Notes under the pieces: generated by a model
Seen by the model: only the letters and a program-made list of their open reading frames with translations
Database searches by the model: none
Told to the model about the DNA's origin: nothing
Translations under genes and position numbers: made by a program
Part shown: positions 17,549 to 50,995 of the stretch, in pieces
Position numbering within the stretch: position 1 is the first letter of the stretch
How the letters are laid out: each line of letters opens with the position of its first letter
DNA from: a bacterium
GTDB lineage: Bacteria > Patescibacteriota > Minisyncoccia > UBA6257 > GWB1-50-10
NCBI GenBank assembly: GCA_027310365.1
Contig: DAIDAY010000003.1
Span: 1 to 52,927, forward strand
Length of the DNA: 52,927 bases
Direction of reading: 5' to 3'

Positions 17549-17649
17549 CCTATGAGAAATAAACGTACCATCGCGGCTTCTTGAATATCCATACCTTAGG
17601 AAAAATCATTTTAGCTTCTATCACGGAGTATCTGTTCATTTCCCATGGG
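17549..17649. mobile_element. MITE-like element E1 at a start codon
   Basis: AT-cctatgagaaat ... atttcccatggg-AT; TIR 10/12. Confidence 0.7.
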
Positions 17650-17651
17650 AT

Positions 17652-18698
17652 TCACGCAAAGTGCGCCAAGAAAAAGATAACGAGACCGAAAGCCGCGGCC
17701 ATGGCGCTTATGATCCAAAACCGCATCGTAATCTGACTTTCGGGCCAGCCAAGCCCCTGAAAATGATGGTGGATCGGCGCCGAAAGAAAAACTTTTTTCT
17801 TCCGCAATTTCTTGCTCGCCACCTGGATGATGACCGAACCGGACTCGACGAGGAAAGTGAAGGCGAAAAACGGCAGAAAGAGCGACGTGTCGGTTGTGAG
17901 CGCGATAACCCCCAGCGTAATGCCGAGAGACATCGAACCCGTGTCACCCATGAAAAATTTCGCCGGATGGATATTGAACCACAAAAATGCGAGAAGGGCA
18001 CCGATGATTGCGGCAATCATCGCGGCCAAGTCGTATTTATGGAGCGCGAAGGCGACGACATCAAGCGCCGCAAAGGAAAAGAGCGAAACGCCCCCGAGAA
18101 GGCCATCCAAACCATCCGTTTCGTTCGCTGAAAAGGCCGTCGCGACGATCACAAAAATGAAAAACGGGATGTACCACCATCCGAAATCGAGGGGGCCGAT
18201 GAACGGGAAATACACCGTATGCCAGCCGAGGCGAAAATAAAACCACCAGGCCCCAAGGACGGCTGCGAGGGTGTAGAGTATAAGCTTATGCTTTATTTTG
18301 AGACCGCCGCCGTGGGGGCCGATGCCTTTGATTCCCATTACATCGTCGAAGAGACCGATGAGCGCGGCAAATAAGAGCGCGAAGAGCGGAACGTATGTTT
18401 CTGATCGACTGACGAAGTTCAAATAACTGGAGAAACCGTCGAAGATGTTCCCCAAAATCAGGAATATGACGGCAAGTCCGATGACCGTCGCCCAAATGAT
18501 GATTCCGCCCATGGTCGGCGTCGAGGATTTATCCTTGTGATACTGGTAAAAAACGGGAGCGCTCTTTTCATCCCTGATGTTGTTTTTCCTCAGGTTGAAT
18601 TTTTGGAGGAAGGAGAAAACAAACGGCGTAATAATGAGTGCGGTCGTGAATGCTAACGCAAAAATCATGAGCACCCTCGTCGCGGAGAATACCGTCAT
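17652..18698 (-). CDS. mraY: Phospho-N-acetylmuramoyl-pentapeptide transferase
   Basis: TPTMGG, DD, TDGLDGL, FMGDTGS, APIHHHF. Confidence 0.97.
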   Translation of the reverse strand: MTVFSATRVLMIFALAFTTALIITPFVFSFLQKFNLRKNNIRDEKSAPVFYQYHKDKSSTPTMGGIIIWATVIGLAVIFLILGNIFDGFSSYLNFVSRSETYVPLFALLFAALIGLFDDVMGIKGIGPHGGGLKIKHKLILYTLAAVLGAWWFYFRLGWHTVYFPFIGPLDFGWWYIPFFIFVIVATAFSANETDGLDGLLGGVSLFSFAALDVVAFALHKYDLAAMIAAIIGALLAFLWFNIHPAKFFMGDTGSMSLGITLGVIALTTDTSLFLPFFAFTFLVESGSVIIQVASKKLRKKKVFLSAPIHHHFQGLGWPESQITMRFWIISAMAAAFGLVIFFLAHFA

Positions 18699-18722
18699 AT
18701 CGTTATTATTCTACCTCCCCAT

Positions 18723-18830
18723 CCAAAGAGGAGCAACATAAAAACGCTTTGCATTGCAAACCTGAGATATTTTATGCGCACACGTCTGGGGATACTCATA
18801 TATCGCTGATTCGACCGCACTCCTCTCTGG
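18723..18830. mobile_element. MITE-like element with ccaaagaggag / ctcctctctgg ends
   Basis: 10/11 TIR, 108 bp, fills the gap upstream of mraY. Confidence 0.5.
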
Positions 18831-18840
18831 GTATGAGAGT

Positions 18841-19764
18841 CTATTGGAATTTATAGGATTTGGAAACCCAATCGATGAGAGTATTCAAATCGTCGAACCG
18901 GGAGTCGCTTCCCATGATAACCGAGATCAATCTTTGATTCCCGATTTCAAGTACGGTGGCGAGGTTTTGCTTTGCAAGTGGCGAAGTGCCCGTTTTTCCG
19001 CCTAAAAAATCGATCCGGGCAACGATCGGATCGATGTTCGAAACCACATTGATCCGCGAAGAATTCAAGGGTTGCACGTTCTGAGTCGTGAGACGGGTCC
19101 ATGTCAGAATCTCCGGGTCTTTCTCGACGATGTACTTGAGGAGCATGTACATATCATTCGGCGTTCCCCTGTTGTTGTCGTCCAACCCGGAAGAATCATT
19201 GATGACAGTCTGCGTCATCCCGATTTCCGCCAGCTTGGCCCTCGCCATAGCCAAAAACCGATCATTGCCGATGTATTCCTCAAAGGCGGCAGCCGCCCGG
19301 TTGGAGGATTCCATGAGCATGATTTTTAAGAGATCTTCCGACTTATAGATTTCGCCGGCTCGGAAATTCCCCGCTTCGCCGTCGACGGTCATGGTTGTCG
19401 TGGAAATGGGTATTTTTTTGTCGAGGCCGACGTTCTCAACGACGACAACCGCCGTAATGAGTTTTGTGAGCGACGCCAAACGCCACGGCGCATACGCCTT
19501 GAGGCGATAGAGCGAGAAATTACCGTCGAGCGATTGCATCAAAACGCCCTCCGCCGAAAGTTTCGGGTCCAAAACGCTCCAGTCGCGGATCGGTATCCGG
19601 CCGGCCTCTGCATGGAAGGACACGGTGGTCGAAGAATTGCCCGGCGGCGCATCGGTTGGAACGGTACCTTCACCCCCCCTCAAGTTAAAAATCGGCACAA
19701 CGACCGTTATGAAAACGATCCCCAAGACAATAATGAGGGTGAATAAAAAAAAATTTTTTGTCAT
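18841..19764 (-). CDS. D-alanyl-D-alanine carboxypeptidase (peptidase S11)
   Basis: ASLTK (SxxK), SSN (SxN), KTG; N-terminal membrane anchor. Confidence 0.9.
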   Translation of the reverse strand: MTKNFFLFTLIIVLGIVFITVVVPIFNLRGGEGTVPTDAPPGNSSTTVSFHAEAGRIPIRDWSVLDPKLSAEGVLMQSLDGNFSLYRLKAYAPWRLASLTKLITAVVVVENVGLDKKIPISTTTMTVDGEAGNFRAGEIYKSEDLLKIMLMESSNRAAAAFEEYIGNDRFLAMARAKLAEIGMTQTVINDSSGLDDNNRGTPNDMYMLLKYIVEKDPEILTWTRLTTQNVQPLNSSRINVVSNIDPIVARIDFLGGKTGTSPLAKQNLATVLEIGNQRLISVIMGSDSRFDDLNTLIDWVSKSYKFQ

Positions 19765-19778
19765 GAATCTTCTTTGCC

Positions 19779-20378
19779 TTAAGCCGCGTCGAAGGATTCA
19801 TCCTCCGGAGCTTCGGCGACGGAGGGTTTCCCTTCCATTTGCTCGAAGCTTTCCAAAATATGTTTGTATTTTTGATACTCGGGAAGATCCTCGACGCTCC
19901 GTATTCCCAAGTGCTTCAAGAAATCAAAACTCACGGTATATTCATAAATATTTTTCTTACCCTGCTGGAGCTGCCTCCCGATAAGCCCGCGGATTAAAAG
20001 ATTTCTCAAAATGAACGTCGCGTTGACGCCGCGGATGTAATCGATGACCGATCGTGTGATGGGCCCGAGATACGCAATGATGGAAATGGTTTCGAGCGCC
20101 GCGGGTGTCAGCTCCTCCTTGAATTCGTCTTCGCCGATCCTCTTTAAAATCCAGCTGAACGTTGTCTTTGTCGCGATCTGTACCTTGCCGTCATTTTTCA
20201 AAAGCATGAACCCGGATTCTTCGCGCGCTGCGAAACTCGCGGAAAGTTCGTCAATAAGCGCCGAGCATTCTTCTTCCTTGAATTCCAACAACTTCGCGAT
20301 TCTCTTAATCTCTATCGGCTCGCCGTAGTAAAAAAGCAATGCCTCGATCGCAGCTCTTTTCTGTTTTTCCTTGTCCAT
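19779..20378 (-). CDS. scpB: Segregation and condensation protein B
   Basis: IEALLF, LT.AALET.SIIAY..PITR..ID.IRGV, FL..LG.....LP. Confidence 0.95.
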   Translation of the reverse strand: MDKEKQKRAAIEALLFYYGEPIEIKRIAKLLEFKEEECSALIDELSASFAAREESGFMLLKNDGKVQIATKTTFSWILKRIGEDEFKEELTPAALETISIIAYLGPITRSVIDYIRGVNATFILRNLLIRGLIGRQLQQGKKNIYEYTVSFDFLKHLGIRSVEDLPEYQKYKHILESFEQMEGKPSVAEAPEDESFDAA

Positions 20379-20389
20379 TTTTTCCTTAA

Positions 20390-20470
20390 GAAGATTGGGT
20401 GAGGTGAAAAAGTGTGGAGGACGTGGACGATCGCTCTGGAGCATACACTTTTTTGACCTACCGAATTTTC
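20390..20470. repeat. Long imperfect inverted repeat between scpA and scpB
   Basis: aagattgggtgaggtgaaaaagtgt ... acacttttttgacctaccgaattttc. Confidence 0.6.
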
Positions 20471-20474
20471 TACT

Positions 20475-21170
20475 TCATATCTTCGAAACAATCATATCGG
20501 AAAACCGGCCCTCCTGTTCAACAGTTATAAGCTGTTGCCTGATCAAATGCAAGACGGCGAGAAAAAGCACGACAACCTCTTTCTTGTTTCCACCGTGCAG
20601 TTCCTTGAATTTCACGGGGGCTTGCGTCAGACGGCTGAAAACCTCCTCGATTTTCTTCTTCAAATTGATGATTTCATTCCGCACTTTTACCACCGGCTTC
20701 AAAAATTTTTCCATCTCGCCGATGAGCTTTTTCACGGCCGACTCGAAATCACTCACTGTGACTGATTTCGGCGGATAGAAAACTTCGGCCACACCCTTCA
20801 GATATTCCCGCGTCCCCATGACTTCAGTCGGTTTCCATACATCCTTGAGATAGAGCTTCGCCTGCTTGAATTCCCGGTAGACCTTGAGGCGGAGTTCCAG
20901 ATTCTTGATATCGGCTTCCTCTTCCTCGGAAAGCTCCAGGGACGGCAGAACCGATTTCGACTTGATGAGAAGAAGCTTCGAGGCAACTGAAAGGAAATCG
21001 GCCACGAGGGAATTCCCCACTCCCTGCTTTTCTATCTTTTCCAGATAATCAAAAAAGCCGCCGGTCACTTCGGCTAAGCTTACGATCGTTACCTCCAGCT
21101 TCTGATCTTCGATGAGCTCTAAAAGCTTCTCGATCGGCCCCTGATAGTATTCAAAAGACAGTTCATACAT
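20475..21170 (-). CDS. scpA: Segregation and condensation protein A
   Basis: YQGP.E.LL.LI, A.FL..AS.LL.IKS...LP, FLA.L.L. Confidence 0.94.
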   Translation of the reverse strand: MYELSFEYYQGPIEKLLELIEDQKLEVTIVSLAEVTGGFFDYLEKIEKQGVGNSLVADFLSVASKLLLIKSKSVLPSLELSEEEEADIKNLELRLKVYREFKQAKLYLKDVWKPTEVMGTREYLKGVAEVFYPPKSVTVSDFESAVKKLIGEMEKFLKPVVKVRNEIINLKKKIEEVFSRLTQAPVKFKELHGGNKKEVVVLFLAVLHLIRQQLITVEQEGRFSDMIVSKI

Positions 21171-21208
21171 AGGAAATGCTCTTATATGATATAATACTTC
21201 TGAAGATT

Positions 21209-21592
21209 ATGAAATTGTTTGAGAACGATTTGAGGTATCTGTCTCCTTCGTTCATCCTCCGGCTCGGTGTCGGCTTCGTTCTGGTCTATGCGGCGATCGG
21301 CTCGCTTCTTGAACCGGAAGCATGGCTCGGTTTTGTCCCCCACTGGGTGAGTACTATCATCGCGCCGGCGACTTTCCTCCTCATCTTCTCGGTATTCGAA
21401 CTTATCCTCGGCTTTGCCATTTTTTTCGAGAGATTCCTCACGACCGCCTCCCTCCTCGCCTTCTGGGTTTTGATTTTCATTCTTATCTTTTACGGCGTGA
21501 ACGATATCACCTTCCGCGATTTCGGCCTCGCCCTTGCATCCCTCGCCCTCTTCTTCATCTCTTTAAGAGAACGAGAAAACAAACCTCACTAA
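21209..21592 (+). CDS. DoxX-like membrane protein
   Basis: ILRLG.G, four TM segments, RDFGL motif. Confidence 0.8.
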   Translation: MKLFENDLRYLSPSFILRLGVGFVLVYAAIGSLLEPEAWLGFVPHWVSTIIAPATFLLIFSVFELILGFAIFFERFLTTASLLAFWVLIFILIFYGVNDITFRDFGLALASLALFFISLRERENKPH

Positions 21593-21725
21593 CCTGAAGG
21601 TGCATCAATGGACTAAAGTGCAGGCAGCCAGCGCGTCGGTGCCGAGTTTTGGCAAAGCGTACGTGGTGAAGACGGTAAAGTAAACCGCTCGTTAGCAAAG
21701 GGGCTTGGTTTGTTGTTGAGGAAAC

Positions 21726-21841
21726 CATCTCGCAGGACGACTTGCCTGCGCAAGCAGGGCGGGCACGATGTCTCGCTCTGCGAGACGAGCGAGTCCGAGA
21801 GCGAGCGCAAATCTCACGCTGGGGAATTCGATAGCGTGTTT
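21726..21841 (+). repeat. Dispersed repeat family C
   Basis: tctcgcaggacgacttgcctgcgcaagc shared with 29814 (+) and, with one substitution, 41865-41892 (-). Confidence 0.9.
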
Positions 21842-21864
21842 ACGAGACAATAAATCGAGTCCGC

Positions 21865-22872
21865 CTAGCCATGGCGAACCTCGATAACATCCCCGTCTTG
21901 AACGATATAATCCTTCCCCTCCAGTTTCAGCCATCCCCTCTGCTTCGCCTGCGTCCAGCCTCCCGCCGCGATGAGTTTTTGCCAGTTCACCACTTCCGCC
22001 CGGATGAATCTGTGCTCGAAATCTGTATGGATGACGCCCGCCGACTGCGGCGCTTTCGTCCCTTTCTCGATCGTCCACGCCCGCGTTTCGTCCTCCCCGG
22101 TCGTGAAGAAACTAATGAGATTCAAAATGGAGTAGGCGGCCTTGATCAAGTTGGGAACCGCATCGGTTTCGCTCAAATCCGCGATCAAATACTCGAATCC
22201 CATCTTCCTGATTTTTTCTTTCACGTCTTCTTGCACATCCTCCGGCTTCCCGTTCAAGAGGAATATCTGCGGCTTCGCGGTCAAAAGTTGAAGCTCCCCG
22301 ATTATTTTCTCGTTCTTCAGGGAAGTGAGGAGTTCGCCCTTCCCGAGCATCTCCTTTGCTTTTTTCAAAACCTCCAGATCAATCTTCGCCTCGCCTGTCT
22401 GCCCTGAGTTCGCCGAACGGGTCTCCGTCTCAAATTTCCTCAATCTCTTCTCGATGGTATCCAAATCCTTGAAGATGAGCTCCGCTTCGATCGTATCGAT
22501 ATCGCGGACGGGGTTCACGTTTCCCTCCACATGGACAATGTCGCCGTTCTCGAAACATCGCACGATGTGCGTTATCGCCTGGACGTTCCGGATGTGCGAC
22601 AAGAATTGATTTCCCAATCCCTCACCCTTGTATGCGCCTTTCACCAACCCTGCGATGTCGTAGAATTCGACGACGGCCGGGATTTTCTTTTTCGAATGCG
22701 TGAGATCAGCGAGCTTGTCGACCCGCTCGTCCGGAACGGGAACAACCCCCACGTTGGGATCGATCGTCGCGAACGGGTAATTCGCGATGTGCACCTCCTG
22801 GCTCGTTATGATTTTGAAAAGAGTGCTCTTTCCAACATTGGGTAAGCCGACTATTCCTACTTCTAATTTCAT
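21865..22872 (-). CDS. ychF: Ribosome-binding ATPase YchF
   Basis: GIVGLPNVGKST, ANYPF.TIDPN, DIAGLVKGA..GEGLGN.FL, C-terminal TGS domain. Confidence 0.97.
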   Translation of the reverse strand: MKLEVGIVGLPNVGKSTLFKIITSQEVHIANYPFATIDPNVGVVPVPDERVDKLADLTHSKKKIPAVVEFYDIAGLVKGAYKGEGLGNQFLSHIRNVQAITHIVRCFENGDIVHVEGNVNPVRDIDTIEAELIFKDLDTIEKRLRKFETETRSANSGQTGEAKIDLEVLKKAKEMLGKGELLTSLKNEKIIGELQLLTAKPQIFLLNGKPEDVQEDVKEKIRKMGFEYLIADLSETDAVPNLIKAAYSILNLISFFTTGEDETRAWTIEKGTKAPQSAGVIHTDFEHRFIRAEVVNWQKLIAAGGWTQAKQRGWLKLEGKDYIVQDGDVIEVRHG

Positions 22873-22985
22873 CCCGTTAGAAATAAGACACAGACACGAA
22901 GAGTATGCCGTATCTTCTCTCCGACCATTATCGTTAATTTTACGCTTGTGGAATTACTCCAACGGTGTCTGTGATTTCGAATGGG
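22873..22985. mobile_element. MITE-like element E2 at the ychF start codon
   Basis: AT-cccgttagaaat ... atttcgaatggg-AT; TIR 10/12. Confidence 0.75.
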
Positions 22986-23244
22986 ATTCATATGTCCTTT
23001 TCAACAATTTTACCTCGTGAGGAGCAAAATGCCCAGAGTGTTCTCCCCGTGTTGGGATGAATATCCGAACGGATGCGGACGCAGACCTTAATACCTCGTA
23101 CGGTTCTCTTGAAAATGGATTTAAACTGAAGTGCGGGGTTTTCTCCCCCAGCGAAGGCAAGAAAGATCCTGCTTGGTTTTATAGGCAGGAGAGCGTTGTT
23201 CGCAAACGACCCGATATCAAACATTCCGGAACTAATATGGAATC

Positions 23245-23358
23245 CGCCTCAAAAATCAGTAGGTACTGAATTTTGAGGCGACGGAGTGAAGCTCCGCATA
23301 TTCCGCTGCGGATGACGATGAGCGATGATGGAGGCCCTCCGGGCGAGAGTCGGGGGGA
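23245..23358. repeat. Dispersed repeat family A
   Basis: 88 nt identical to 30138-30225; begins with a 36-nt palindrome. Confidence 0.95.
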
Positions 23359-23761: not shown

Positions 23762-23793
23762 GTTCCCATAATAGCATATATAATACATCTATC

Positions 23794-25530: not shown

Positions 25531-25575
25531 GTGGTACACTTTAGTATGCAGCATACCACCCATTCGGAAATCCCC

Positions 25576-25704
25576 TCAGATAAACATATTCCCCTCATCC
25601 TCGTAGCTTTTTTGAAGTTGCCACGACGATGATCTTTTCTTCCTCTTAGTCGCCATTGATATAATCATGGCTACCAAGAGAAAAATAATCAGAATCTTTT
25701 TCAT
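25576..25704 (-). CDS. Small 42-aa single-TM protein not in the ORF track
   Basis: GGAGG SD then MKKILIIFLLVAMIISMATKRKKRSSSWQLQKSYEDEGNMFI. Confidence 0.6.
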   Translation of the reverse strand: MKKILIIFLLVAMIISMATKRKKRSSSWQLQKSYEDEGNMFI

Positions 25705-28139: not shown

Positions 28140-28382
28140 GCCTCGTAGTACAACCGCAAGCTATTTGTTGTTTGAATAATAAACCTTTGATTTCTTTTCT
28201 TTGCCACCCCCCCGCCCGGAAAGCCCCGCCGCAGTGCGACAGGAATGAACGGATGGCATCCCGAATCTCGTATTCCGCTTCCGGGAAGCTCCCGTGTAGG
28301 GGGCGGAGAGCTCTTCGCCGTACACTGTTCCATCCTCGCATACACGCCTTTGGCGACATCATTCGCAGTTGTACTACGAGGC
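28140..28382. mobile_element. 243-bp MITE-like element at the tmk start codon, carrying repeat module B
   Basis: AT-gcctcgtagtacaac ... gttgtactacgaggc-AT, perfect 15-bp TIR; internal 58 nt identical to 49582-49639. Confidence 0.88.
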
Positions 28383-29742: not shown

Positions 29743-29812
29743 AACGAACGTCTTACTGTACCATGAAAACAACCCTTTTTGCAAGCAGGAATCTCAATTC
29801 CCCGATCAAAGC

Positions 29813-29960
29813 GTCTCGCAGGACGACTTGCCTGCGCAAGCGGGGCGGGCATGGTTGCCTGGAGGGCAGAGCGGGTCCGAGAACGTCCAGCCTTCGCGGC
29901 TGAAGCTGCTTCGGCGGAGCAGGCAGCATGAATTCCTCGGGGAGAATTTGACGGCGTGTT
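29813..29960 (+). repeat. Dispersed repeat family C with an extra hairpin module
   Basis: 5' part matches 21726, 3' part matches 3543-3620. Confidence 0.88.
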
Positions 29961-30137: not shown

Positions 30138-30252
30138 CGCCTCAAAAATCAGTAGGTACTGAATTTTGAGGCGACGGAGTGAAGCTCCGCATATTCCGCT
30201 GCGGATGACGATGAGCGATGATGGAAGCTTCTCTGGGCGAGAGCCGGGGGGA
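30138..30252. repeat. Dispersed repeat family A
   Basis: Matches 23245-23358. Confidence 0.95.
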
Positions 30253-30837: not shown

Positions 30838-31297
30838 TTTTCTTCACGAACAACACCTTAAAGATAAAAAAGGAGATCGCCGCCAATGCAAGGCCACCGG
30901 CGATATCGGCGGGAGAGTCCGCGCCAACCATAATCAAACCCGCCGCATTGAGAAGAGAAAGGAGGGTAAAAAACATACCCCACTTTTTCCGGAAAATCCA
31001 CAATGCAAACGATATCGTGAAAAAGAAAGCGGCGGAGGCTGAAGGAAAACCAGTGCGGCCGGCGATCACGTCCGCAAGGGGAAAAAGAATGAAGCGCGAA
31101 AGAATACCAATGAAAATAATCTGCAAAAATGCGAGCGTTTTATCTCTTAACCCCTTTTTCTTGACTACGAAAAGAAGAACGCCGATTCCCATAAGGTACG
31201 GGAGATAGTACCCGAAAACGCTGCCGATAAAACTCAGAAGAGCGGACCCTGCCGCTAATCCGCGGAGCCATGAGAAAATTTCTTCGTTGAGATTCAT
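30812..31297 (-). CDS. PAP2-like membrane protein, degenerate active site
   Basis: FPSASA and GADSPADIAGG align loosely to the PAP2 FPSGH and HxxxDxxxG motifs. Confidence 0.55.
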   Translation of the reverse strand: MNLNEEIFSWLRGLAAGSALLSFIGSVFGYYLPYLMGIGVLLFVVKKKGLRDKTLAFLQIIFIGILSRFILFPLADVIAGRTGFPSASAAFFFTISFALWIFRKKWGMFFTLLSLLNAAGLIMVGADSPADIAGGLALAAISFFIFKVLFVKKNEIIPEGV

Positions 31298-31412
31298 CCC
31301 GTTAGAAATAGTACGCCTACATGCCGCTTGATCTGCGTACCTTGTTCTTGACTCCTTCCCTTAATCTTTTACTCACGTTTTTATTATGATTTGCGCACGC
31401 GATTCTAACGGG
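31298..31412. mobile_element. MITE-like element E3 at a start codon
   Basis: AT-cccgttagaa ... ttctaacggg-AT; perfect 10-bp TIR, 115 bp. Confidence 0.8.
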
Positions 31413-31551
31413 ATTCGTACCCTGTAGCACAACGTCGAGTTGTTTATTATCGCAAACAATACACCCTTCAACTCTCAGATCACGTTCAGCGCGGTTGCAC
31501 TCCAGATCAAGCTCCGGCATCGTTGCTCGATGTGTCCCTATGGGACACATC

Positions 31552-32214: not shown

Positions 32215-32345
32215 CCTGCGCCTTTAAAGAATCATAGCCGTTCCGGCATATGAATCTTTGTTTTTTGTGTGACCTTTACAATTACTCATGCGATGGATGG
32301 TTTAAACTTTTGTTTTGCTATACCGCAATCCCTTACGAGTGCAGG
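32215..32345. mobile_element. MITE-like element at the ssb start codon
   Basis: AT-cctgcgc ... gtgcagg-AT; short TIR (6/7), 131 bp. Confidence 0.55.
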
Positions 32346-32358
32346 ATTCATGGCCTTC

Positions 32359-32749: not shown

Positions 32750-32769
<20 letters not shown>
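32359..32769 (-). CDS. rpsF: 30S ribosomal protein S6
   Basis: RYE, L.YPI, LRY; rpsF-ssb-rpsR synteny. Confidence 0.9.
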
Positions 32770-36433
<3,664 letters not shown>

Positions 36434-36440
36434 GGTAGCG

Positions 36441-39400
36441 CTATTCCTCGTTGTCCGTTCGTTCGTCTTCGCGGCCTTTTTCATATTCATAACTTACGTC
36501 GAGTCCGAGTGATTTCATTTCCGAAACCAGAACGTTGAACGAGGCGGGAACGTTCGGTTTCCTGATCTCCTGACCCCTGATGATTGCTTCAAAAGCAGCC
36601 GATCGTCCCAAGACGTCGTCTGACTTTATCGTCAGCATTTCCTGGAGCGTGTGCGCCGCCCCATATCCTTCCAAGGCCCATACTTCCATTTCCCCGAAGC
36701 GCTGTCCGCCGAGGTTCGCCTTTCCGCCCAACGGCTGTTGCGTTATCAGGGAATAAGGGCCCGTCGAGCGCACATGCATCTTGTCTTCCACAAGGTGATT
36801 TAATTTCATGATGTACATGTAGCCTACCGTGATCGGATCGGGAAAGGGCTGCCCCGTAAGGCCGTTGACGACTTTCATTTTCCCACTCGGATGATATCCA
36901 GCCGTCTTCAATTCTTCTTTGATGTCCTCTTCGGTCGCACCGACAAATCCCTGGACGATCGCCCGATAGCCGTGCTTCTTGGCTGCCAAACCGAGACTCA
37001 CTTCCATGATTTGGCCTAAGTTCATTCTGGTCACGACACCCAGCGGATTCAGGACGATGTCCACCGGCGTTCCGTCTTCTAGGTACGGCATGTCTTCAAT
37101 TCTTCTCACTTGGGCAATGACACCTTTGTTGCCGTAGCGGCCCGCCAGCTTGTCGCCGGCTTTTATTTTGCGGAGCTGCGCCACCTCGACTTGTATCTTC
37201 TTGATGATTCCCGGATCGAGCTTGTCGCCCTTGTCGCGGGAGAAAATTTTGATGCCGATAACCCTTCCCTCTTTGCCGTGCGGCAACGTGAGAGAGGTGT
37301 CTTTGATATCGCGCGCCTTCTCGCCGAAAATAGCCCGGAGCAGCCGTTCTTCCGACGTGAGCTCTGACTCGCCCTTCGGCGAAATCTTGCCGACCAGGAT
37401 GTCGTTCGCCCGCACTTCGGCCCCGATCCGGATGATGCCTTCCGCATCGAGGTTCCTCAGTTTTTCTTCCGAAACGTTCGGAATGTCGGGTGTCGTGATT
37501 TCAAGGCCCAGTTTCGTGTCTTTGACGAGGCAGGTATGCGTGTCGATGTACACCGAGGTAAACAAATCCTCGCGGGCGACCTGCTCGGAAATCACGATGG
37601 CGTCTTCGAAGTTCGCGCCGTAGAACGGAACGAATGCGACGAGAAGATTTTTCCCGAGCGCCAAAACGCCGTCCTCCGTCGCCGGACCATCGGCCAAAAC
37701 CATCCCCGGTTTCACCTTGTCGCCCGTAAGTACCCGAGGCTTCTGAGACATACAGGTCGAATTATTGGACCTCTTGAATTTATACAAACGATAAATCTTG
37801 TTCCCCTTTTCCGTTTTGACGGTTATCGAATCCGCATCGACTTCCGAAACGACGCCGGCGGCATCGGCGACGATGACTTGCCCTGAATCTCTGGCTGTTT
37901 TTTCTTCGAGTCCTGTGCAGACGAGCGGCGCTTCCGCCCGGAGCGGCGGCACCGCTTGGCGCTGCATATTGGAGCCCATAAGAACCCTGTTCGCATCATT
38001 GTGTTCCAAAAATGGAATGAGCGACGTCGCGATACTGACCATTTGATTCGTCGAAACGTCGATTAGATCGACTTCGCTGACGGGGCAAGTCGACGGATTG
38101 CCCTTCACTCGCGCCGGAACCACATTCTCCAAAATTCCCCCGTCTTCGCCGATCTTCACGTCGGCCTGCGTAATGTTGTACTTCTCCTCATCAAAAGCGT
38201 TGAGCCATATCAGCTTGTTGGTAATCTTCCCGTTTTCCACCTTGAAGTACGGCGTTTCCAAAAAGCCGAACTCATTGATGCGTGTGCAGATCGCGAACGA
38301 GTTGACGATACCGATGTTGGCGCCTTCCGGCGTTTGTATCGGGCAGATTTTTCCGTAGTACGACAGGTGCACATCCCTGACCTCGAAACCGGCGCGTTCC
38401 CTCGTAAGTCCGCCGGGGCCCATGGAAGATAATCTCCTCTTATGTTCGAGTTCGGCAAGGGGGTTCACTTGATCCATAAACTGGGAAAGCGTCGAAGCCG
38501 CGAAAAAATCTTTCACGACGGACGTCAGGAGCTTATAGTTGACGAGCTGCGCCGGTTGGAGTGTCGAGCGGTCAAGCGTCGACATTTTATCCTGGACGCC
38601 CCTCTTTAATCTCGCGAAACCGATCCGGAGGCGGAGCTGTACCAGCTCGCCGACCGATCTGATTCTCCGATTACCCAGATGGTCGATGTCGTCCGGCCTC
38701 GCGGATAAATCGTTGTTTAACCTGATGATTTCGGCAACCGTCAGGATCAGATCGTCCAAATCCAAAACGCGATTGTCTTTTTTCTGGAGAGCTAATCGTT
38801 GATTGAATTTATAGCGTCCGACGGGACTCAAGTCGTACCGGTCGAATCTCGAAAACATCGGTTCAATGAGAAATTTCGCGTTTTCGAGCGTCGCGAGCTC
38901 TCCGGGACGCAACCGCTTGTAGATTTCCAAGAATGATTCATCCCTCGTTTTTGCTTCATCTTTGCCGAGTGTGACGTCGATGTACTTCAGCTTGCCGGTA
39001 TCAACCCCGGCGAAAGCCTTCCTGATCGCTTCGTTGGTTTCCGCGCCGAATACCCGCAACAGTTCCGTTATCGGAGCTTTTCTCCTCCGATCGATCTTCA
39101 CGGTGATGATGCCGTCGGCTTCCGTTTCGAATTCGAGCCAAGCTCCCCGGTTCGGAATCACTTTCGCGCCGAAAAGCTGCCTTCCCCGCCATACGTTCGA
39201 CGTAAAATAAGCGCCCGGCGAACGGATGATTTGAGAAACGACGACGCGTTCCACGCCGTTCACGATGAACGTCCCCCGCTCAGTCATCACCGGAAAATCG
39301 CCGAGGTATACCTCCTGCACCCTGGTCTCCTTGGTCAACTTGTTCGCCAGCTTAATGTTCGCCCGGAGAGGGACTTCGTAGGTCAAGTCTTTCTCAAGCG

Positions 39401-43653: not shown

Positions 43654-43725
43654 TGAATAAATTTTACCTCCACACCTGGACGAGGGCAACATTCTTTTCC
43701 CGTACATTCTCGTTCCGGTGCGGGG

Positions 43726-44322
43726 TTAGCGCGGATACCGCTTAAACCAAACGTTCAGTTTTACCGCCAGCATATCGATGATGTCCTCCACCCCCGGCAA
43801 GCGCTTCGCGGCGCGGACGCTTTCCGGCGGCAATTCTTTTATCTTCAACCCCAAGAGTTCCGCCAACACGAGGGATTCAAATCTGAACCCCCGGCCATCC
43901 CGGGAAAGAAGACGGAAAATCTTCGCGGATGCCTCCTCGCTGAAACAGAGAAGCCCGCCGCGGGCGGCGACGATATCATAGCCTTCCTTGAAAGAGCGGA
44001 TAATGCCGTTGAATTTTTCGATTGACGCTCCTTCTCCATCCTCAAGAAGGAGGTGGTAGCTTCCCTTTGCTCCCAGCATTCCCGCCTTCACGGCATAGCT
44101 TTTTTTCCTCCCCTCCCGGCCATTCACGATCCTCAGGGAAGGAAGAAAGGCGCCTATTTTCTGAAGCATTTCAGCCGTTCCATCGCCGGAATTGTTATTC
44201 GCCACGACAATTTCAAAAGAACAGCCAAGAGATTTGAGGCGGCGATCGGCGTCGAAAAGCAGAAGCGGCAGCTGCTTGTCCTCGCCGGCAACGGGTATGA
44301 CAATCGATAGGAAGGGTTTCAT
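43726..44322 (-). CDS. Glycosyltransferase family 2 (dolichyl-phosphate glucosyltransferase-like), shortened and degenerate
   Basis: LSIVIP, EIVV.NN.S.DGT, K..AVKAGML.AKG. Confidence 0.75.
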   Translation of the reverse strand: MKPFLSIVIPVAGEDKQLPLLLFDADRRLKSLGCSFEIVVANNNSGDGTAEMLQKIGAFLPSLRIVNGREGRKKSYAVKAGMLGAKGSYHLLLEDGEGASIEKFNGIIRSFKEGYDIVAARGGLLCFSEEASAKIFRLLSRDGRGFRFESLVLAELLGLKIKELPPESVRAAKRLPGVEDIIDMLAVKLNVWFKRYPR

Positions 44323-44437
44323 TCCGTTAGAAGCAGAACACGAACGCACTTGGCGTTTCCGTATTCTCCCCGCTCTGTTTTTCCTGACCTTGTTTTTGGT
44401 ATTATCACCTGAATATGTGTTTGTGGCTTCTCACGAG
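44323..44437. mobile_element. MITE-like element E4 at a start codon
   Basis: AT-tccgttagaagc ... gcttctcacgag; 115 bp, homologous to 50881-50995; right flank is CT. Confidence 0.8.
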
Positions 44438-44446
44438 CTCCATGGG

Positions 44447-46807: not shown

Positions 46808-46891
46808 GAGTGGATAAAAATGACTAATGACTGACTAACCTCATTCGACCTCATCAGTGACCAAGTATGAGACACGAGAGTAAATAAGAAA

Positions 46892-47314
46892 TTATTTAAT
46901 GATCCCCCTCTTTTTCAATTCCGGAATGAGTTTGTCGGTCAACGCGTCGTGAAGGGCGTCTTCGATGAAGGGGGGGTATCTCCTTGATTCCGCAAGCGCC
47001 TTCTCCACATCAAAGTTCAAGGCCACGCTGATAAGGTTTTCAACGATAGTCTTCGTTTGTTCGTCGCTTCCTTCCTCGCCCGACATGTACGACGGCAGGA
47101 AATTATCCAAGGGGTTTGCGGCAGTGCTCGCGAGCTTCCCGCCTTGAGGAGAAACCGGCGCGGGGGGGACCGGCATGTTTTTGATCGCTTCCTTGACCAC
47201 TTTTTCAATCGTCGCTTCCTTCAATTCAGGAGAACGCAAGCTTTTGGCAATCTCAACGCCCAGCCTATTCAAACTGCCCTCCAGCCCTTCGCTGAAATTT
47301 TGCACCTTAACCAT
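46892..47314 (-). CDS. Hypothetical protein
   Basis: 140-aa ORF with TATAAT 7 nt upstream; P...DALHD.L motif. Confidence 0.75.
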   Translation of the reverse strand: MVKVQNFSEGLEGSLNRLGVEIAKSLRSPELKEATIEKVVKEAIKNMPVPPAPVSPQGGKLASTAANPLDNFLPSYMSGEEGSDEQTKTIVENLISVALNFDVEKALAESRRYPPFIEDALHDALTDKLIPELKKRGIIK

Positions 47315-47346
47315 TTTCTTTATTATACATCACTAATAAAATGACA

Positions 47347-47628
47347 GCAGCAACCGTAGCTCCGCTTCCCAAACACGCTATGCCAAACCCCAGCGAGGTT
47401 TGGCCGCTCGCTCTCGGGTTCGCTCGTGGGCGGAGGTACGCTTTCCGTGCGGGCAGTTCTCGGAGGCGAGCAAGCTCGGTTTCCGGAGGAATGGCGAGCC
47501 GAGAGCGCAGGGCGGCAGTGACCGCAGGAGTCACTGAACGCCCGGTGCCGGTAGGAGAGCGGAACTCCTCCCACACCCTGCCCGCTCACCCTGCGAGACG
47601 GTTTGATCAACGGAGCTACGGTTGCTGC
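47347..47628. mobile_element. 282-bp nested element: 18-bp perfect TIR, enclosing family C, enclosing module F
   Basis: gcagcaaccgtagctccg ... cggagctacggttgctgc. Confidence 0.88.
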
Positions 47629-47640
47629 ATACCCTCCCTC

Positions 47641-49110
47641 CTACTGCGTAAGGTTTTGAATTTGTATCGAACCCAAGGGATTCGACGTTGTGATGTTCGT
47701 CGCTGAAGCGTATTGGTTTGAAGGGACGCTGAACACGCCTGTCGTGTTCGTCCCACCCGACCAATCACTCTGGTTGAATGTAAAGTTTGACCATCGCGTA
47801 AAGTAGTCGCTCAAACTAAAGTTCGACGTTTTCCCGGCCGCATCCCACTCCGTAACGGCGGTAACTGCTTGCGTCGAGGGGTCGTTGAAATCGTTGAGAT
47901 TGCTCGTGCAGGGCGGGGTGGTCGACGCATCAAGCGTACCGTTCGTGTTCCGGCAAACATCCCGAACGGAGAAATATCTCCGGAAAACGCTGCCGTTGTA
48001 GAGTTGCTTGATCTCGTCTGCCGAAAGAACTCGATTGTAAATGCGGACATCGTCAAGGTAGTCGGGGGTCGTCGTTGTCCCTCCTATTCCCCCATGAATG
48101 ATGAGATTGACGCCGGTCGGCGTCACGTAATTCCCCGTCGCGGAACCGCCGGTATTGCCGTTGACGTAAATAACCGCAGTGCTGCTCGCATACGTTACTG
48201 CGACTTGCGAAAATGCGTTTATCGATACCGGAAGAGCCGATATCAAACTTAAACTCCCCCCTGACTGGGTGGTCCAGAAGACCGGCTGACCGGAGGTTCT
48301 GAATCCCATTCTGAAACCGGAAACGAGATAGGATTCCCTGCCCACGATGATGTTGCCGTTTTGATCACCGGCTCCCAAAGCAATTGGCTTTACCCAGAAA
48401 ACTATCGAAAAGCTTGAGGAGTCGAACAGGGTATTGCGTCCCACGTTAACGCTCGAGCCAGTGTTGTTGTAACCGCCATTAAAATACAGGCAGTAGCTCT
48501 CTTTGCATGTTGATGCCGACTGCCATGTCGGATTATTTACCAGGCTTCCGTTATTCCCGTTGCCGCTCTCATCATAAGTTATGGTTCCCGTTTCCTCGTC
48601 AAATCCCCACCTTCCTACCAACCCATTTTTGATTTCATTGTCTATGACCCCCTCCTCTCCCGGCGTCGCGATGAAACCCGCGCCGGAAGCGACAAGAAAA
48701 TAAGGATTGATCGTGCTCGTGCTGCGCTGGAGATTGTACACGTTTCCCCAATTGGATGCCGAAAACGTTTTCACTTTATTCAAAAGATCCTGGCTGAATT
48801 GGGTTGCCGTATTGATCGTCTGGACGGTCGAACCGGAACGCAAAATGAATGCAATCGCGATACTCGCCGCACCGATCAAAAGCGCCCCGATCGCGAGCCC
48901 CATCAATACCTCGATCAAGCTCTGTCCGCTTCTTGAACCCATCTCGAAAATGCCCTTGCTACCGCAATCTCTCTGATTCAGTTGTTGCTTCGTTGTTCCT
49001 CCTCGCTGGATATGCCTTGCTGATACAGCTTCGTCATCGTTCCTTGTCTCACTCGCACTAAGAGTGATTTCGTGACGAAAAGCATCTTTTAGATGGGTTC
49101 TCTTCTTCAT
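47641..49110 (-). CDS. Type IV pilin-like protein with LamG/concanavalin-like domain
   Basis: GQSLIEVL plus hydrophobic helix; GLVGRW.FDE..G....D.SGN.N.G; LDDVRIYNR.LS..EI..LY; alternative start 48942. Confidence 0.88.
   Translation of the reverse strand: MKKRTHLKDAFRHEITLSASETRNDDEAVSARHIQRGGTTKQQLNQRDCGSKGIFEMGSRSGQSLIEVLMGLAIGALLIGAASIAIAFILRSGSTVQTINTATQFSQDLLNKVKTFSASNWGNVYNLQRSTSTINPYFLVASGAGFIATPGEEGVIDNEIKNGLVGRWGFDEETGTITYDESGNGNNGSLVNNPTWQSASTCKESYCLYFNGGYNNTGSSVNVGRNTLFDSSSFSIVFWVKPIALGAGDQNGNIIVGRESYLVSGFRMGFRTSGQPVFWTTQSGGSLSLISALPVSINAFSQVAVTYASSTAVIYVNGNTGGSATGNYVTPTGVNLIIHGGIGGTTTTPDYLDDVRIYNRVLSADEIKQLYNGSVFRRYFSVRDVCRNTNGTLDASTTPPCTSNLNDFNDPSTQAVTAVTEWDAAGKTSNFSLSDYFTRWSNFTFNQSDWSGGTNTTGVFSVPSNQYASATNITTSNPLGSIQIQNLTQ
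48934..49101. mobile_element. 168-bp inverted-repeat element inserted in frame in the prepilin leader
   Basis: gaacccatctcgaaaatgc ... gcatcttttagatgggttc. Confidence 0.75.
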
Positions 49111-49131
49111 TGACTTCATTATAGCGAATAA

Positions 49132-49165
49132 CAAAAAGAACCCCCAGAGACAAGCCAGGGGTTTC
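49132..49165 (-). terminator. Probable terminator downstream of tRNA-Tyr
   Basis: gaaacccctgg...ctgggggttc followed by a T tract. Confidence 0.6.
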
Positions 49166-49252
49166 ATATGTGCAGGGAGGAGTTAAACAACAGCGATTTG
49201 CTGTAGAGCGAATCGCTGTTGTAAAACCCCTCGGTCTTACTATTTCGTTTAG

Positions 49253-49335
49253 TGCGTCGGGAAGGACTCGAACCTTCGGTGCCCGATGGGCGGCGGATTT
49301 ACAGTCCGCTGGAATAGCCGCTATCCGACCGACGC
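49253..49335 (-). tRNA. tRNA-Tyr(GTA), CCA not encoded
   Basis: GCGTCGG/CCGACGC acceptor stem, GCGGA-CTGTAAA-TCCGC anticodon arm, long variable arm, GGTTCGAGTCC. Confidence 0.95.
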
Positions 49336-49351
49336 CTCTATAAACACGCAC

Positions 49352-49866
49352 TTACTCAGATTTTGCGGTTTGCAGCAAAAACTTTTCTTTGTACAGCATT
49401 ATAGAATTCTTTATCTCTAAGAGCAACTTTTTATCAGCGTATCTTATATGAATGAGACCGTGCGCCATTTTCCTTCCGTCCGGCAGATAATCTCTTCCCA
49501 TTATACGGCTGAGTGAACTGTTTCCGAATTGACGAGCTCTTTGCTACCCCCCCCGCCCGTTCATTCCCGCCGCAGGTATGGCAGGAATGAACGGATGGCA
49601 TCCCGAATCTCGTATTCCGCTTCCGGGAAGCTCCCGTGTTTGAGGGCGGAGAGCTTCACTCCGGTCACTAATCAGTTTATCGGCATTTTGATCGGAGTAA
49701 CAATGCAGCAATACTCGAAGTCCACCATTATCAAGTTCGTACGTGCCCCCGGAAGTATCTCAGAAACATAGCAGTCGTATCAGGATCGCTGTTGGCAGAA
49801 TTTATCCTCGACCCCTTATCGCTTTTATCGCCTTTTCCCCAATCAAGTATGGCAAAGCACAGAAAA
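49352..49866 (-). pseudogene. Frameshifted, repeat-interrupted gene for a tRNA-adjacent LAGLIDADG-like protein
   Basis: Stitched frames: ILDWGKGDK..ANSDP....FLRYFRG / YELDNGGLRVLLHCYSDQNADKLI / KQFTQPY / RKMAHGLIHIRYADKKLLLEIK; family call is from recall. Confidence 0.55.
49535..49655. repeat. Repeat module B
   Basis: Homologous to 28198-28312, 58 nt identical. Confidence 0.92.
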
Positions 49867-49993
49867 CTTTTCTCAGTGACTTACCTCTCCAGGGGGAAAT
49901 ACAATATTTACTGAGTGAACTATACAAACGTTTCAAAACCCCCGAGTGGGGAGGAGGAAATGAACACAACATCGCTTGTCTGAGTTCCAACCT

Positions 49994-50029
49994 TGCCTCA
50001 AAAATCAGCAGGTGCTGAATTTTGAGGCA
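49994..50029. repeat. Variant of the family A palindrome
   Basis: tgcctcaaaaatcagcaggtgctgaattttgaggca; two compensatory base-pair changes. Confidence 0.85.
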
Positions 50030-50126
50030 GCGATGCTGAGTTCGATATTTCGTGGCTTTATTCCGACGAAGAACGGGGAAGATTTTACGTTTTATATTCT
50101 CGTGAGCGAGGTGGAGATCGTGTTTC

Positions 50127-50438
50127 TTAACTCTCCTTCTTCTCCTCGGTCTCCGGTAACGTCGGCATCCTGCCGCTTTCCTTCCTCAGTTTCCCAAGCT
50201 TAGCCTCGATGAAATTATTGAGTTGCAGAAGCCACACCTTTACCCTCCGCAGAAACCTCTCCGAAAACGACTTCAAGGCGGCATCGCTTTTCTCAACATA
50301 GCCCATGAGGCGGGTGCTCCTTCTCGCCTTCATATCAGCAACTTCCTCGTCGCTGATCCTCGGCAGCGTTTCGGCCATAAGATACACGATGGCGGCCAGC
50401 GCAATCATGATAACGGTTTGGAGAATAAAACGAAGCAT
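50127..50438 (-). CDS. Hypothetical membrane-anchored protein
   Basis: N-terminal TM helix followed by LPR; starts 1 nt after the tsf stop. Confidence 0.8.
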   Translation of the reverse strand: MLRFILQTVIMIALAAIVYLMAETLPRISDEEVADMKARRSTRLMGYVEKSDAALKSFSERFLRRVKVWLLQLNNFIEAKLGKLRKESGRMPTLPETEEKKES

Positions 50439-50439
50439 T

Positions 50440-50880
50440 TTACACCTCGTACCTGATGAACCTTTCCACTTGGATATTTTCCCCCACTTTCGCCATCGTG
50501 CCTTTCACGAGATCGGCAACGCCCATCGACTCGTTCTTGATATACGGTTGCCCTAAGAGTTCCTCTATATTCCCCGGGTTCATTGCCGCGATTTGCATGG
50601 CGAGCTCATGAACGAGGGATTGAAAAGGTTCCGACCGCACCACGAAGTCGGTTTCTGCCCGTACCTCCATCAAAACGCCGACGCGGCCGTTGTGGACATA
50701 GGCATACACCAAACCAGCACCGGTTTTCCGCTCTTTTTTGGACTCGGCTTTCGCAAGGCCTTGTTTCCTGATGATTTCGGTCGCCCCATCGAAGTCGCCC
50801 TTCGCTTCTTCAAGCGCCCGTTTGCATTCCATGACCCCCGCCCCCGTCATTTCCCGTAATTTTATGATGGTATTATCCAT
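50440..50880 (-). CDS. tsf: Elongation factor Ts (short form)
   Basis: LREMTGAG.MECKRAL, ETDFV, AMQIAA, GENIQV.RF. Confidence 0.96.
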   Translation of the reverse strand: MDNTIIKLREMTGAGVMECKRALEEAKGDFDGATEIIRKQGLAKAESKKERKTGAGLVYAYVHNGRVGVLMEVRAETDFVVRSEPFQSLVHELAMQIAAMNPGNIEELLGQPYIKNESMGVADLVKGTMAKVGENIQVERFIRYEV

Positions 50881-50995
50881 CCTGTGAGAAGCAGAACACG
50901 AACGCGCTCGGCGTTTCCGTATTCTCCTTGTTTTGTTTCGGCAGTCTTGTTTTTTTGTATCATTGTTCGATTCCGTGTTTGTGGTTTCTCACGGG
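50881..50995. mobile_element. MITE-like element E5 at the tsf start codon
   Basis: AT-cctgtgagaagc ... gtttctcacggg-AT; TIR 10/12, 115 bp. Confidence 0.85.

Follow-up and report, generated by a model that had tools for sequence, protein, structure and literature searches.

The stretch of DNA analysed here (the window, 52,927 nucleotides, contig DAIDAY010000003.1 of assembly GCA_027310365.1) belongs to a Patescibacteria bacterium of about 0.75 Mb and contains, directly 5' of the start codons of several genes, short inverted-repeat elements which are the subject of this report. The assembly, called G000 below, amounts to 747 kb in 84 contigs, of which the window is C33; it is rated 98.8% complete and has a G+C content of 50%. 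Seven intervals had been singled out in a sequence-only reading of the window, and all seven lie where it placed them, each adjoining a CAT, that is, the ATG of a long open reading frame (ORF) on the minus strand, which carries the genes at all seven. Pfam searches confirmed the gene names amidohydrolase, YchF, thymidylate kinase (tmk), SSB, GT2 and EF-Ts (tsf), and identified an S2 gene (rpsB) upstream of the EF-Ts gene and an MraY-type GT4 gene upstream of the amidohydrolase gene; the remaining ORF, of 161 amino acids and named as PAP2-like, had no Pfam match. Five of the elements, 101–115 bp long, indeed have common CCCGT[T/G]AGAA-type inverted ends, and AT stands on both sides of six intervals, the exception being that upstream of the GT2 gene. 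The assignment of all seven to a single family holds for six of them, five having CCCGT[G/T]AGAAA ends and the one upstream of ssb variant ends; the interval upstream of tmk is a different element (Table 1).

By its anatomy the family is one of miniature inverted-repeat elements (MITEs), that is, of non-autonomous DNA transposons, and very probably it is a mobile element which duplicates (A)TGAA at start codons. Its ends read 5'-T CCCGT(G/T)AGAAA ... TTTCTAACGGG A-3', the 12-bp terminal repeats being 87% complementary in 22 copies, with a conserved mismatch at position 6, and extending to about 20 bp in subfamilies. Cores measure 98–191 bp, typically 106 or 115–121 bp, and enclose only ORFs of 17–66 codons and no transposase gene. 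Of the features that define a MITE, short length, terminal inverted repeats, a target-site duplication and many dispersed copies differing in presence among relatives were all found, and a cognate transposase was not. An nhmmer search of G000 gave 27 matches at E <= 1e-6, and a scan for pairs of ends, with no condition placed on the flanks, gave 42 pairs as against 6–13 in five shuffles. Of the 27 curated copies, 26 have ATG and one has GTG directly after them, opening an ORF of 38–655 codons; with three added copies this becomes 30 of 30, and the curated total for G000 is these 30 plus the variant upstream of ssb, which is single in this genome besides one weak 40-nt match and displays the same insertion signature as the family.

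Table 1. Elements at the seven intervals of the window, with their flanking repeats and open frames (window positions).
Element	Positions	Strand	Core, ends and place	Left and right repeats	Open frame
MITE copy	17549..17649	-	101 bp core (CCCATGGGAAAT...ATTTCTCATAGG), between mraY-type GT4 and amidohydrolase genes; covariance model E = 1.6e-6	Tips 17650 (T) and 17548 (A of ATG); TGAA 17651-17654 and 17544-17547; base 17655 turns left codon into GTG, overlapping upstream TGA stop	Internal ORF of 29 codons (17550-17639), stop 1 nt 5' of working ATG
MITE copy	22873..22985	-	113 bp core, upstream of ychF	ATGAA 22987-22991 (old start) and 22868-22872 (working start)	40-codon ORF (22869-22991), from left ATG through whole element to TGA overlapping ychF ATG
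MITE copy	31298..31412	-	115 bp core, perfect 10-bp ends, upstream of 161-aa ORF	Left decayed, ACGAA (31414-31418); right ATGAA (31293-31297)	
MITE copy	44323..44437	-	115 bp core, upstream of GT2 gene	Left ATGGA (44439-44443), then G in place of T; right ATGAA (44318-44322)	GTG-initiated 29-codon ORF to TGA overlapping working ATG
MITE copy	50881..50995	-	115 bp core, between rpsB and tsf	Left ATTGA (50997-51001), its TGA being the rpsB stop; right ATGGA (50876-50880)	ORF continuing 19 nt beyond tsf ATG
Related element	32215..32345	-	131 bp, ends CCTGCAC...GCGCAGG (CCTGCRC), upstream of ssb	ATGAA-T 32346-32351 and ATGAA 32210-32214	21-codon ORF, stop 9 nt 5' of ssb ATG
Different element, outside the family	28140..28382	-	243 bp, 20-bp perfect ends (GCCTCGTAGTACAAC...), nested ~115-bp repeat, upstream of tmk	No (A)TGAA repeat	82-codon ORF, ATG 7 nt after TATAAT, to TGA overlapping tmk ATG

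Among 41 related genomes (labelled G001 onward; G036 is from another family within the same order) a covariance model found the family in 19, the count per genome running from 0 to 49: none in G004, G006 and G007, one in G001, 26 in G036, 34 in G003 and 49 in G005, with 28 in G000. The relatives' copies analysed below are the 60 best-scoring of about 125 in G003, G005, G036 and G011. Scanning metagenomes for the element pattern yielded at least 120 stretches, and viral contigs gave no match to it. Genes directly downstream of copies include those for S17, L9, S5, SecY, L36, RpoA, TopA, enolase, GlyA, HrcA, PilC, ATP synthase delta, EF-Ts, SSB and YchF; the copies are dispersed across such housekeeping operons and do not form arrays. 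Their orientation relative to the gene is uniform, with 29 of 30 copies in G000, 58 of the 60 fetched and 19 of 21 further loci (the first 21 of 30 covariance-model loci, namely L033–L046, L052, L054–L060 and L062), or about 106 of 111, lying in the sense direction.

The flanks of 90 copies (30 from G000, 20 each from G005 and G003, 19 from G036 and one from G011) indicate what is duplicated. Directly after the core, which ends ...CGGG, comes ATG in 87 of 90, the three exceptions being GTG, ATA and GCT; the flank consensus is a-T-G-A-A-T on the left and A-T-G-A-A-n on the right. Positions −6 to −2 on the left equal +1 to +5 on the right in 56 of the 90 (per-position matches 78, 79, 84, 80 and 79), the base at left −1 is T in 86, and that at right +6 is random. 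Furthermore, position 4 of the repeat covaries between the two sides (G/G in 12 of the 16 copies with a left G, T/T in three, C/C in one; Fisher p = 2.4e-8), and TGAA, TGGA, TGTA, TAAA and CTTG were all seen as variants present on both sides. It had been proposed that AT is duplicated, such that removal of an element plus one AT leaves TGATG or TGA-ATG at the junction. The arithmetic is right, but at ychF the AT model leaves four extra bases: relatives have '..gcat ATGAAAC..' and G000 '..acat ATGAA-T[element]ATGAAAT..'. Because of these empty sites and the covariation of the repeat we reject a duplication of AT only in favour of one of (A)TGAA. Since the empty relatives align with the left copy in G000, the left ATGAA at ychF is the old start.

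A 2-bp TA/AT duplication of the IS630/Tc1 or Correia type was considered and discarded, the repeat spanning TGAA or ATGAA, the ychF junction being in error by four bases, and the IS630 domain DDE_3 being found in none of five MITE-rich genomes. Most likely the duplication is the 4-bp TGAA and the element is T-CCCG...CGGG-A, its 3' A completing the right-hand ATG. We had first favoured a 5-bp duplication with an extra 5' T. At ATGAA targets the two schemes are indistinguishable, and the choice was decided only by a class of metagenomic relatives tipped with C and G and by locus L185, where one of these stands as ATGAA-C[...]G-TGAA. In L185 the right-hand codon is GTG, which shows that the start codon takes its first base from the tip of the element.

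Genes in G000 were called by crude ORF rules of our own, taking the longest ORF and its first ATG. ATGAA occurs about 165 times at the starts so defined, 413 times outside called genes and 1864 times inside genes, and all 30 copies are at starts, so that on these gene calls the copies are enriched at start codons, a test which the earlier reading had asked for. The starts appear to be real ones: their N-termini agree with those of orthologues, and of 48 right-flank frames in relatives 46 are open over all 32 available codons as against about 0.22 expected by chance. Empty orthologous sites, which it had likewise proposed to look for, were found for rpsB-tsf in 11 of 11 relatives, for ychF in 5 of 5 and for mraY/amidohydrolase in 3 of 4 (G002, G004 and G007; G001 holds a copy of a different subfamily). 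Together with the target duplications and the differences in copy number among the 41 genomes, they bear out the view of an inverted-repeat, non-autonomous family which regenerates the start codon. The null model offered beside that view, random insertion with only junction insertions surviving, cannot yield an (A)TGAA consensus; a survival filter acting on insertion that prefers T[G/A]AA is possible. In several places copies stand in tandem with no more than ATGAAT (6 nt) or ATGAT (5 nt) between them, as at G005:C14:16839–17063 (L091), G016:C26 (L058), L216:6132–6366 and L079; going by this layout, the later copy in each pair was apparently inserted at the start codon rebuilt by the earlier one.

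How translation begins in this organism bears on what such an insertion would do. No purine- or G-rich Shine-Dalgarno (SD) signal was found 5' of 625 crude gene starts in G000; GGAG, GAGG or AGGA occurs at −20 to −3 in only 17% of them, and A/T is enriched. Hexamers resembling a −10 box are most frequent 12–15 nt 5' of ATG, with 56 matches at −15 to −12 upstream of the 423 genes that have an upstream gap, and from this peak the geometry of leaderless mRNA may be deduced. The 494 pairs of neighbouring genes on one strand include 39 with an ATGA overlap, 11 with a 1-nt overlap and 76 whose gap is 0–10 nt. Thus, as far as sequence can tell, the genes of G000 look to be started in large part on leaderless mRNA or by translational coupling, and the earlier statement that operons tolerate the elements in an organism lacking SD sequences stands. 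Next to the elements, an upstream ORF on the same strand, 77 codons or longer, terminates no more than 33 nt away in 24 of the 30 copies of G000; in most of these 24 its stop either lies 0–8 nt 5' of the left repeat or forms an ATGA, GTGA or TTGA overlap with it.

A layout that recurs in G000, TATAAT-GAAnnnA-ATG with the −10 box 7 nt 5' of the ATG (C19:4572, C1:29767 and the minus strand of the window near 3808), produces an excess of ATGAA-N4-ATGAA (19 versus 3.6 expected) and backs leaderless transcription. There is also a solo 5' end at G000:C84:15540–15560 (gcATGAAT-CCCGTTAGAAATAAAC...), with no partner 3' end within 110 bp and a TATAAT 8 nt 5' of the ATG.

The strongly non-random feature of the elements is an open reading frame through them, rather than an RNA stem. 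The frame ending at the TAA of the 3' repeat (...TTC TAA CGGG ATG) is free of stops in 21 of 29 G000 copies, a second copy on C17 having been left out here and in the other 29-copy counts as a near-duplicate; the other five frames are stop-free in 4–12 of 29. Read from the left ATG, the frame reaches the repeat TAA in 10 of 30 copies in G000, 18 of 20 in G005 and 13 of 20 in G003, the other two offsets giving 0–2. The start of the gene is reached by an ATG-initiated ORF of 17 codons or more in 21 of 29 copies in G000, 18 of 20 in G005, 17 of 20 in G003 and 12 of 20 in G036 plus G011, as compared with means of 8.1, 3.8, 3.8 and 2.7 and maxima of 14, 8, 11 and 8, respectively, in 200 dinucleotide shuffles of the interiors. 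The 3' end of the element serves all three frames, with TAA 4 nt before the ATG, with TGA overlapping the start as ATGA (because the target has an A after its ATG), or in frame with the gene. The geometry of termination-reinitiation, that is, TAA-CGGG-ATG or the ATGA overlap, is accordingly present, and an ORF of 17 codons or more arrives in 68 of 89 copies. Lengths favour the TAA frame, the total insert being 1 mod 3 in 18 of 30, 19 of 20 and 15 of 20 copies in G000, G005 and G003. A complete through-frame ending in the ATGA overlap occurs in the single inverted copy of G000 (C4:6420), in a 191-bp copy (C13:5692) and in the ychF copy of the window.

Based upon these data we propose, at a probability of roughly 0.6, that a non-autonomous transposon survives at start codons by being translated through, with termination at its end and reinitiation on the gene. 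Insertion would occur at TGAA, usually within the gene's own ATGAA start, and TGAA would be duplicated; the old start would then remain at the left, and a new ATGAA, with its A from the tip of the element, would adjoin the gene at the right. Translation of the element would begin at the old ATG, or at one inside the element, and proceed to the TAA in the 3' repeat, 4 nt before the working ATG; in other length classes it would end at the TGA that overlaps this ATG or continue into the gene in frame. A ribosome terminating at the stop of the element would presumably restart on the gene. Observed directly are the family, its ends, target repeat, position and orientation, the empty sites, the excess of open frames and the lack of SD; transposition by some enzyme, translation of the element frame and reinitiation at the gene are what we infer. 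As there is no SD signal and starts appear to be leaderless or coupled, an untranslated insert of about 110 nt would part the gene from its ribosomes, and as termination-reinitiation depends steeply on distance some relay device would be needed; coupling collapses at a spacing of about 20 nt (PMC10666635). That the open frame works as such a translational relay seems to us somewhat better than an even bet.

Several observations weigh against this proposal. In 12 of the 30 copies in G000 the frame read from the left codon ends over 20 nt short of the ATG, and in 8 of 29 no ORF arrives at all. In 17 of 19 of the AT-rich G036 copies an early stop cuts the through-frame short, the left-ATG frame reaching the TAA in only one of 19, and only an internal ORF, of 18–27 codons from an internal ATG, arrives. 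Among the five canonical copies in the window an ATG-initiated arriving frame exists only upstream of the amidohydrolase gene and ychF, and the copy upstream of the 161-aa ORF is degenerate, a TAG 19 nt 5' of the ATG interrupting its frame. Copies within a genome are related, and therefore the counts overstate their independence. The ends in G000 have decayed by 0.10–0.18 as compared with 0.17 for the left repeat; since they decay about as fast, selection in place is not shown in this genome, where the copies may be immobile and decaying. Relatives with C and G at their tips are usually away from an ATG, and searches for a transposase, described below, were negative for five of the models used.

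A rival view is that of a plain target-specific MITE which prefers T[G/A]AA and of which, in a gene-dense genome, only the start-rebuilding insertions survive, the frame having no function and being inherited from a parent element or from an in-frame ancestor resembling the Rickettsia palindromic elements described below; the downstream gene would be self-initiated, for example on an A-rich unstructured region. Consistent with this are the intact look of the genes behind those copies which have no arriving ORF, the lack of clear selection in place on the ends or the frame in G000, a peptide constraint that is weak, with a dN/dS-like ratio near 0.8, and the presence of through-frames in relatives away from an ATG (all four examined). 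Such a view leaves it unaccounted for that four groups whose interiors differ greatly, the AT-rich G036 among them, all keep the arriving ORF, that lengths are biased to the TAA frame, and that the inverted and the 191-bp copies retain full through-frames ending in ATGA; nor is any SD or other initiation signal evident 5' of the right-hand ATG. We regard it as rather unlikely.

The peptide itself appears to matter little. Substitutions relative to the consensus of 42 copies of 106 nt number 195, 195 and 273 at the three codon positions, and 30.8% are synonymous as against 26.1% expected; from so small an excess the frame would seem to be kept open with the peptide barely constrained, and this fits a requirement that the frame be open and its sequence unimportant. 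It is highly improbable that the product is a functional peptide (a leader or attenuator, or a small protein) so that the element would be spreading a regulatory module. Gene callers have already predicted six 35-aa proteins of this type, and the consensus MNPVRN.KLMKK.I...VELTAHHRQ.LMKKAFCF has a mean column identity of 74%. The conserved ends (PVRN... and ...AFCF), however, are the inverted repeats read as codons, the interior shows only the ratio given above, and the peptides of other subfamilies have neither sequence nor charge pattern in common. A profile of the peptide run against 1.84 billion protein representatives had eight matches (the six 35-aa ORFs, one 39-aa ORF and one unrelated 335-aa repetitive protein), with no longer homologue among them.

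The sequence-only reading had suggested instead that the paired ends of the element bring the upstream stop and the downstream start together in the mRNA. Developed further, the upstream stop or the old AUG would come to lie beside the working AUG and the ribosome would shunt or hop across the base of the hairpin, in the manner of T4 gene 60 bypassing or the CaMV shunt, with the duplicated ATGAA as take-off and landing sites. Predicted minimum-energy folds do pair the ends in 10 of 10 elements (z from −3.2 to +0.3, 8 of the 10 being at or below −1.98), the repeat stays complementary where both partners have changed (12 cells of double changes versus 5.6 +/- 1.8 in shuffles, none of 500 being as high), and the stem is flanked on both sides by identical ATGAA. 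Both the pairing and the kept complementarity are expected equally of inverted repeats bound by a transposase. RNAalifold found no consensus pairs in 22 copies, G.U pairs show no excess on the sense strand (37 wobble versus 51 A.C-type mismatches), and the excess of open frames and the bias of length classes would go unexplained. We consider a hairpin shunt very unlikely.

The C...G-tipped sister class (loci L158–L277, for example L161:2285–2400, L170:1182–1308, L172:1751–1877 and L185:4402–4514) helps to delimit what is peculiar to the family in the window. Among the 120 metagenome loci listed, 56 have ends in ...TTCTAACGGGATG (CGGGATG) and 67 in ...TTCTAACGGGG (CGGGG), mostly at both ends, and the interiors of the C...G class are GC-rich hairpins. 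Because about half of the metagenome relatives listed are not at an ATG, residence at start codons is a property of the T...A-tipped class. Ten C...G loci were read by eye, with ORFs listed in four, L163 (a nested or tandem copy) being left unscored: the 4-bp repeats (TAAA, TTTA, TGAA) are perfect in 4 of 9 and have one mismatch in 3 of 9, and all four with ORFs listed are open in the through-frame. In L185 the insert is 113 + 4 = 117 nt and runs in frame into the downstream gene. At L166:628–735 a tRNA-Pro(TGG) gene of the opposite strand (648–718) lies between two family ends, which could be a captured tRNA or a case of ends flanking tRNA genes.

No transposase flanked by the same ends, as the earlier reading had hoped for, was found among the six families searched in five MITE-rich genomes or by a scan for end motifs. 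PF01609, NF033539 (IS1380), PF07282, PF13358 and PF01548 were absent from all five, other insertion sequence (IS) families and the tyrosine and serine recombinases not having been searched; PF00665 (rve) occurs in one, as a 297-aa open frame at G000:C77:27112–27396 (L132), away from the family ends. No long elements were seen either, the 151 end motifs in G003, G005 and G036 all being paired at MITE size or single. Metagenome-assembled genomes can lose repeated IS copies, which bears on these negatives. The IS1380 family, with ends beginning in CC and a 4–5-bp target duplication, offers a lead only: both features recur here, but its transposase model is among those with no match.

The lack of a DDE transposase among the families searched might also point to mobilization as a cassette by a site-specific recombinase of integron or integrase type, for which ATGAA(T) would be the shared crossover core. 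The orientation bias, the single preferred short core and the imperfect inverted repeats, 100–120 bp in extent and with their conserved mismatch at position 6, would suit such a system. An attC site begins with the inverse core RYYYAAC and ends with the core GTTRRRY, and such sites form arrays next to intI. Here the attC-like words are in the wrong order on both strands, GTTRRRY-like 5' and RYYYAAC-like 3' (judged by eye), the copies are dispersed in housekeeping operons rather than arrayed, and the repeats vary in sequence yet agree between the two flanks, the outcome expected of a staggered cut. The integron attC site was rejected on the order of its core words and the dispersal of the copies, no search for intI having been made, and movement by such a recombinase is hardly to be credited.

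As to direct traces of movement, in DNA contigs (four sets) of the sample that is probably the source of G000 no joint skips an element, and excision footprints of the form ATGRA-N0-1-ATGRA number 4 and 7 versus 2.6 and 4.3 in shuffles, with no excess of directly adjoining ATGAA-ATGAA; the excess at gaps of 4–5 nt consists mostly of TATAAT-GAA promoters followed by a leaderless ATG. In G003 the repeats are perfect in 18 of 20 copies, yet its 106-nt copies average 76% identity, and going by sequence alone this fits old element lineages still moving by cut-and-paste, or repeated re-insertion at the same starts. Copies occupy the same start codon in two or three species at the topA, secY, pilC, ATP synthase delta, enolase and L24 genes. 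Elements at shared loci are 62–90% identical, as compared with 41–62% for the third codon positions of the neighbouring genes; pairs from shared loci average 0.779 identity versus 0.765 for random pairs, with 1183 of 5000 random samples as high and mixed results for single pairs of genomes. Constraint or gene conversion would also fit the pattern at shared sites. Because start codons are shared across species and the elements remain this similar with synonymous sites near saturation, one might regard the elements as portable translation-initiation cassettes, kept or repeatedly acquired by the host at particular essential genes. We think this decidedly unlikely. Bolder still would be a variant with a jump across the hairpin, taking an initiating ribosome from the old AUG to its identical new counterpart.

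When set beside known systems the family resembles bacterial MITEs such as the Correia elements of Neisseria, ERIC, RUP/BOX and MITEAba12, which are likewise short, with terminal inverted repeats, a short target duplication and many dispersed copies, have no transposase of their own, are co-transcribed with neighbours and differ in presence among relatives. Correia elements duplicate TA and carry parts of promoters. Unlike any of these, the present elements repeat (A)TGAA, complete the ATG with their tip, and hold an open frame that ends at the start of the gene. A start-codon-resident MITE is not reported in a 2024 review (PMC10969869), in which 'start codon' occurs 0 times, or in the open-access full texts that were searched.

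The same review, in its passage on Rickettsia palindromic elements (RPEs), describes these as about 100–150 bp long, keeping an open frame and being tolerated through translation (PMC10969869). They too are palindromic with an open frame, and the C...G-tipped relatives behave in RPE-like fashion, L185 having the in-frame insertion inside an ORF that characterizes RPEs and that is not seen in the class found in the window. RPEs lie inside genes as in-frame peptide inserts, whereas the T...A class lies before the gene, is 1 mod 3 with a stop in its own repeat, would need a restart, and is found in a different phylum. The attI1 and attC sites of integrons contain short ORFs which, through translational coupling, supply ribosomes to cassettes without an initiation region of their own (PMC8876359). 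ORF-11, ORF-17 and ORF-18 of attI1 and the attC ORFs are short, end beside the start of the next gene and have peptide sequences of no importance, as here. Theirs, however, are in a fixed recombination site with its own SD, whereas here the ORF travels in a transposon, borrows the start codon of a host gene and would work in an organism without SD. Natural termination-reinitiation at ATGA or TGATG provides a further parallel, the 3' end of the element copying the junction types TAA-N4-ATG and ATGA of G000; the difference is that the junction arrives by insertion and that two couplings in series would be needed, from gene 1 to the element ORF and from there to gene 2. In function, by analogy, the family might be likened to a mix of RPEs and the coupling ORFs of attI1/attC.

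Other repeats and features of the window may be noted briefly. The nested part of the different element upstream of tmk (element positions 71–185) recurs at nine further G000 sites with 85–93% identity. It belongs to another repeat family, rich in G+C, about 115 bp long and present in some ten copies, where contig depth is up several-fold: window 28210–28324 (inside 28140–28382) and 49538–49655, and G000 C22:29678–29789, C2:3526–3639, C11:20913–21022, C16:3184–3301, C83:29881–29993 and C66:15168–15279. Contig depth is also several-fold higher at window 23185–23330, 29807–29924 and 30145–30230, and one joint in the contigs leads back from 29924 to 21804 across 37 letters of other sequence. Additional dispersed repeats or an assembly alternative may account for these features. 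The only window match in Rfam at the gathering score is a tRNA. A 96-nt tRNA-Asp called by ARAGORN at 35244–35339, inside a 1246-aa minus-strand ORF (32750–36490) and without an Rfam match at the gathering score, is probably a false call.

In a genome of 0.75 Mb, where spare sequence is scarce, mobile DNA should be lethal nearly everywhere, and yet this family resides within the ribosomal-protein, secY, rpoA and tsf operons. For gene callers it means misplaced starts, spurious 35-aa proteins and fusions of element and gene. About 100 junctions with and without the insert amount to a natural repeated experiment on gene initiation in SD-less, leaderless Patescibacteria, which are not growable alone, and the 3' end TAA-CGGG-ATGA could be a compact coupling device for synthetic operons. 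If survival by translation through the element, termination and reinitiation is true, then selfish DNA would have a third route for hiding, beside splicing (introns, IStrons and inteins) and in-frame coding (RPEs), which is to seize the start codon, be translated and return the ribosome.

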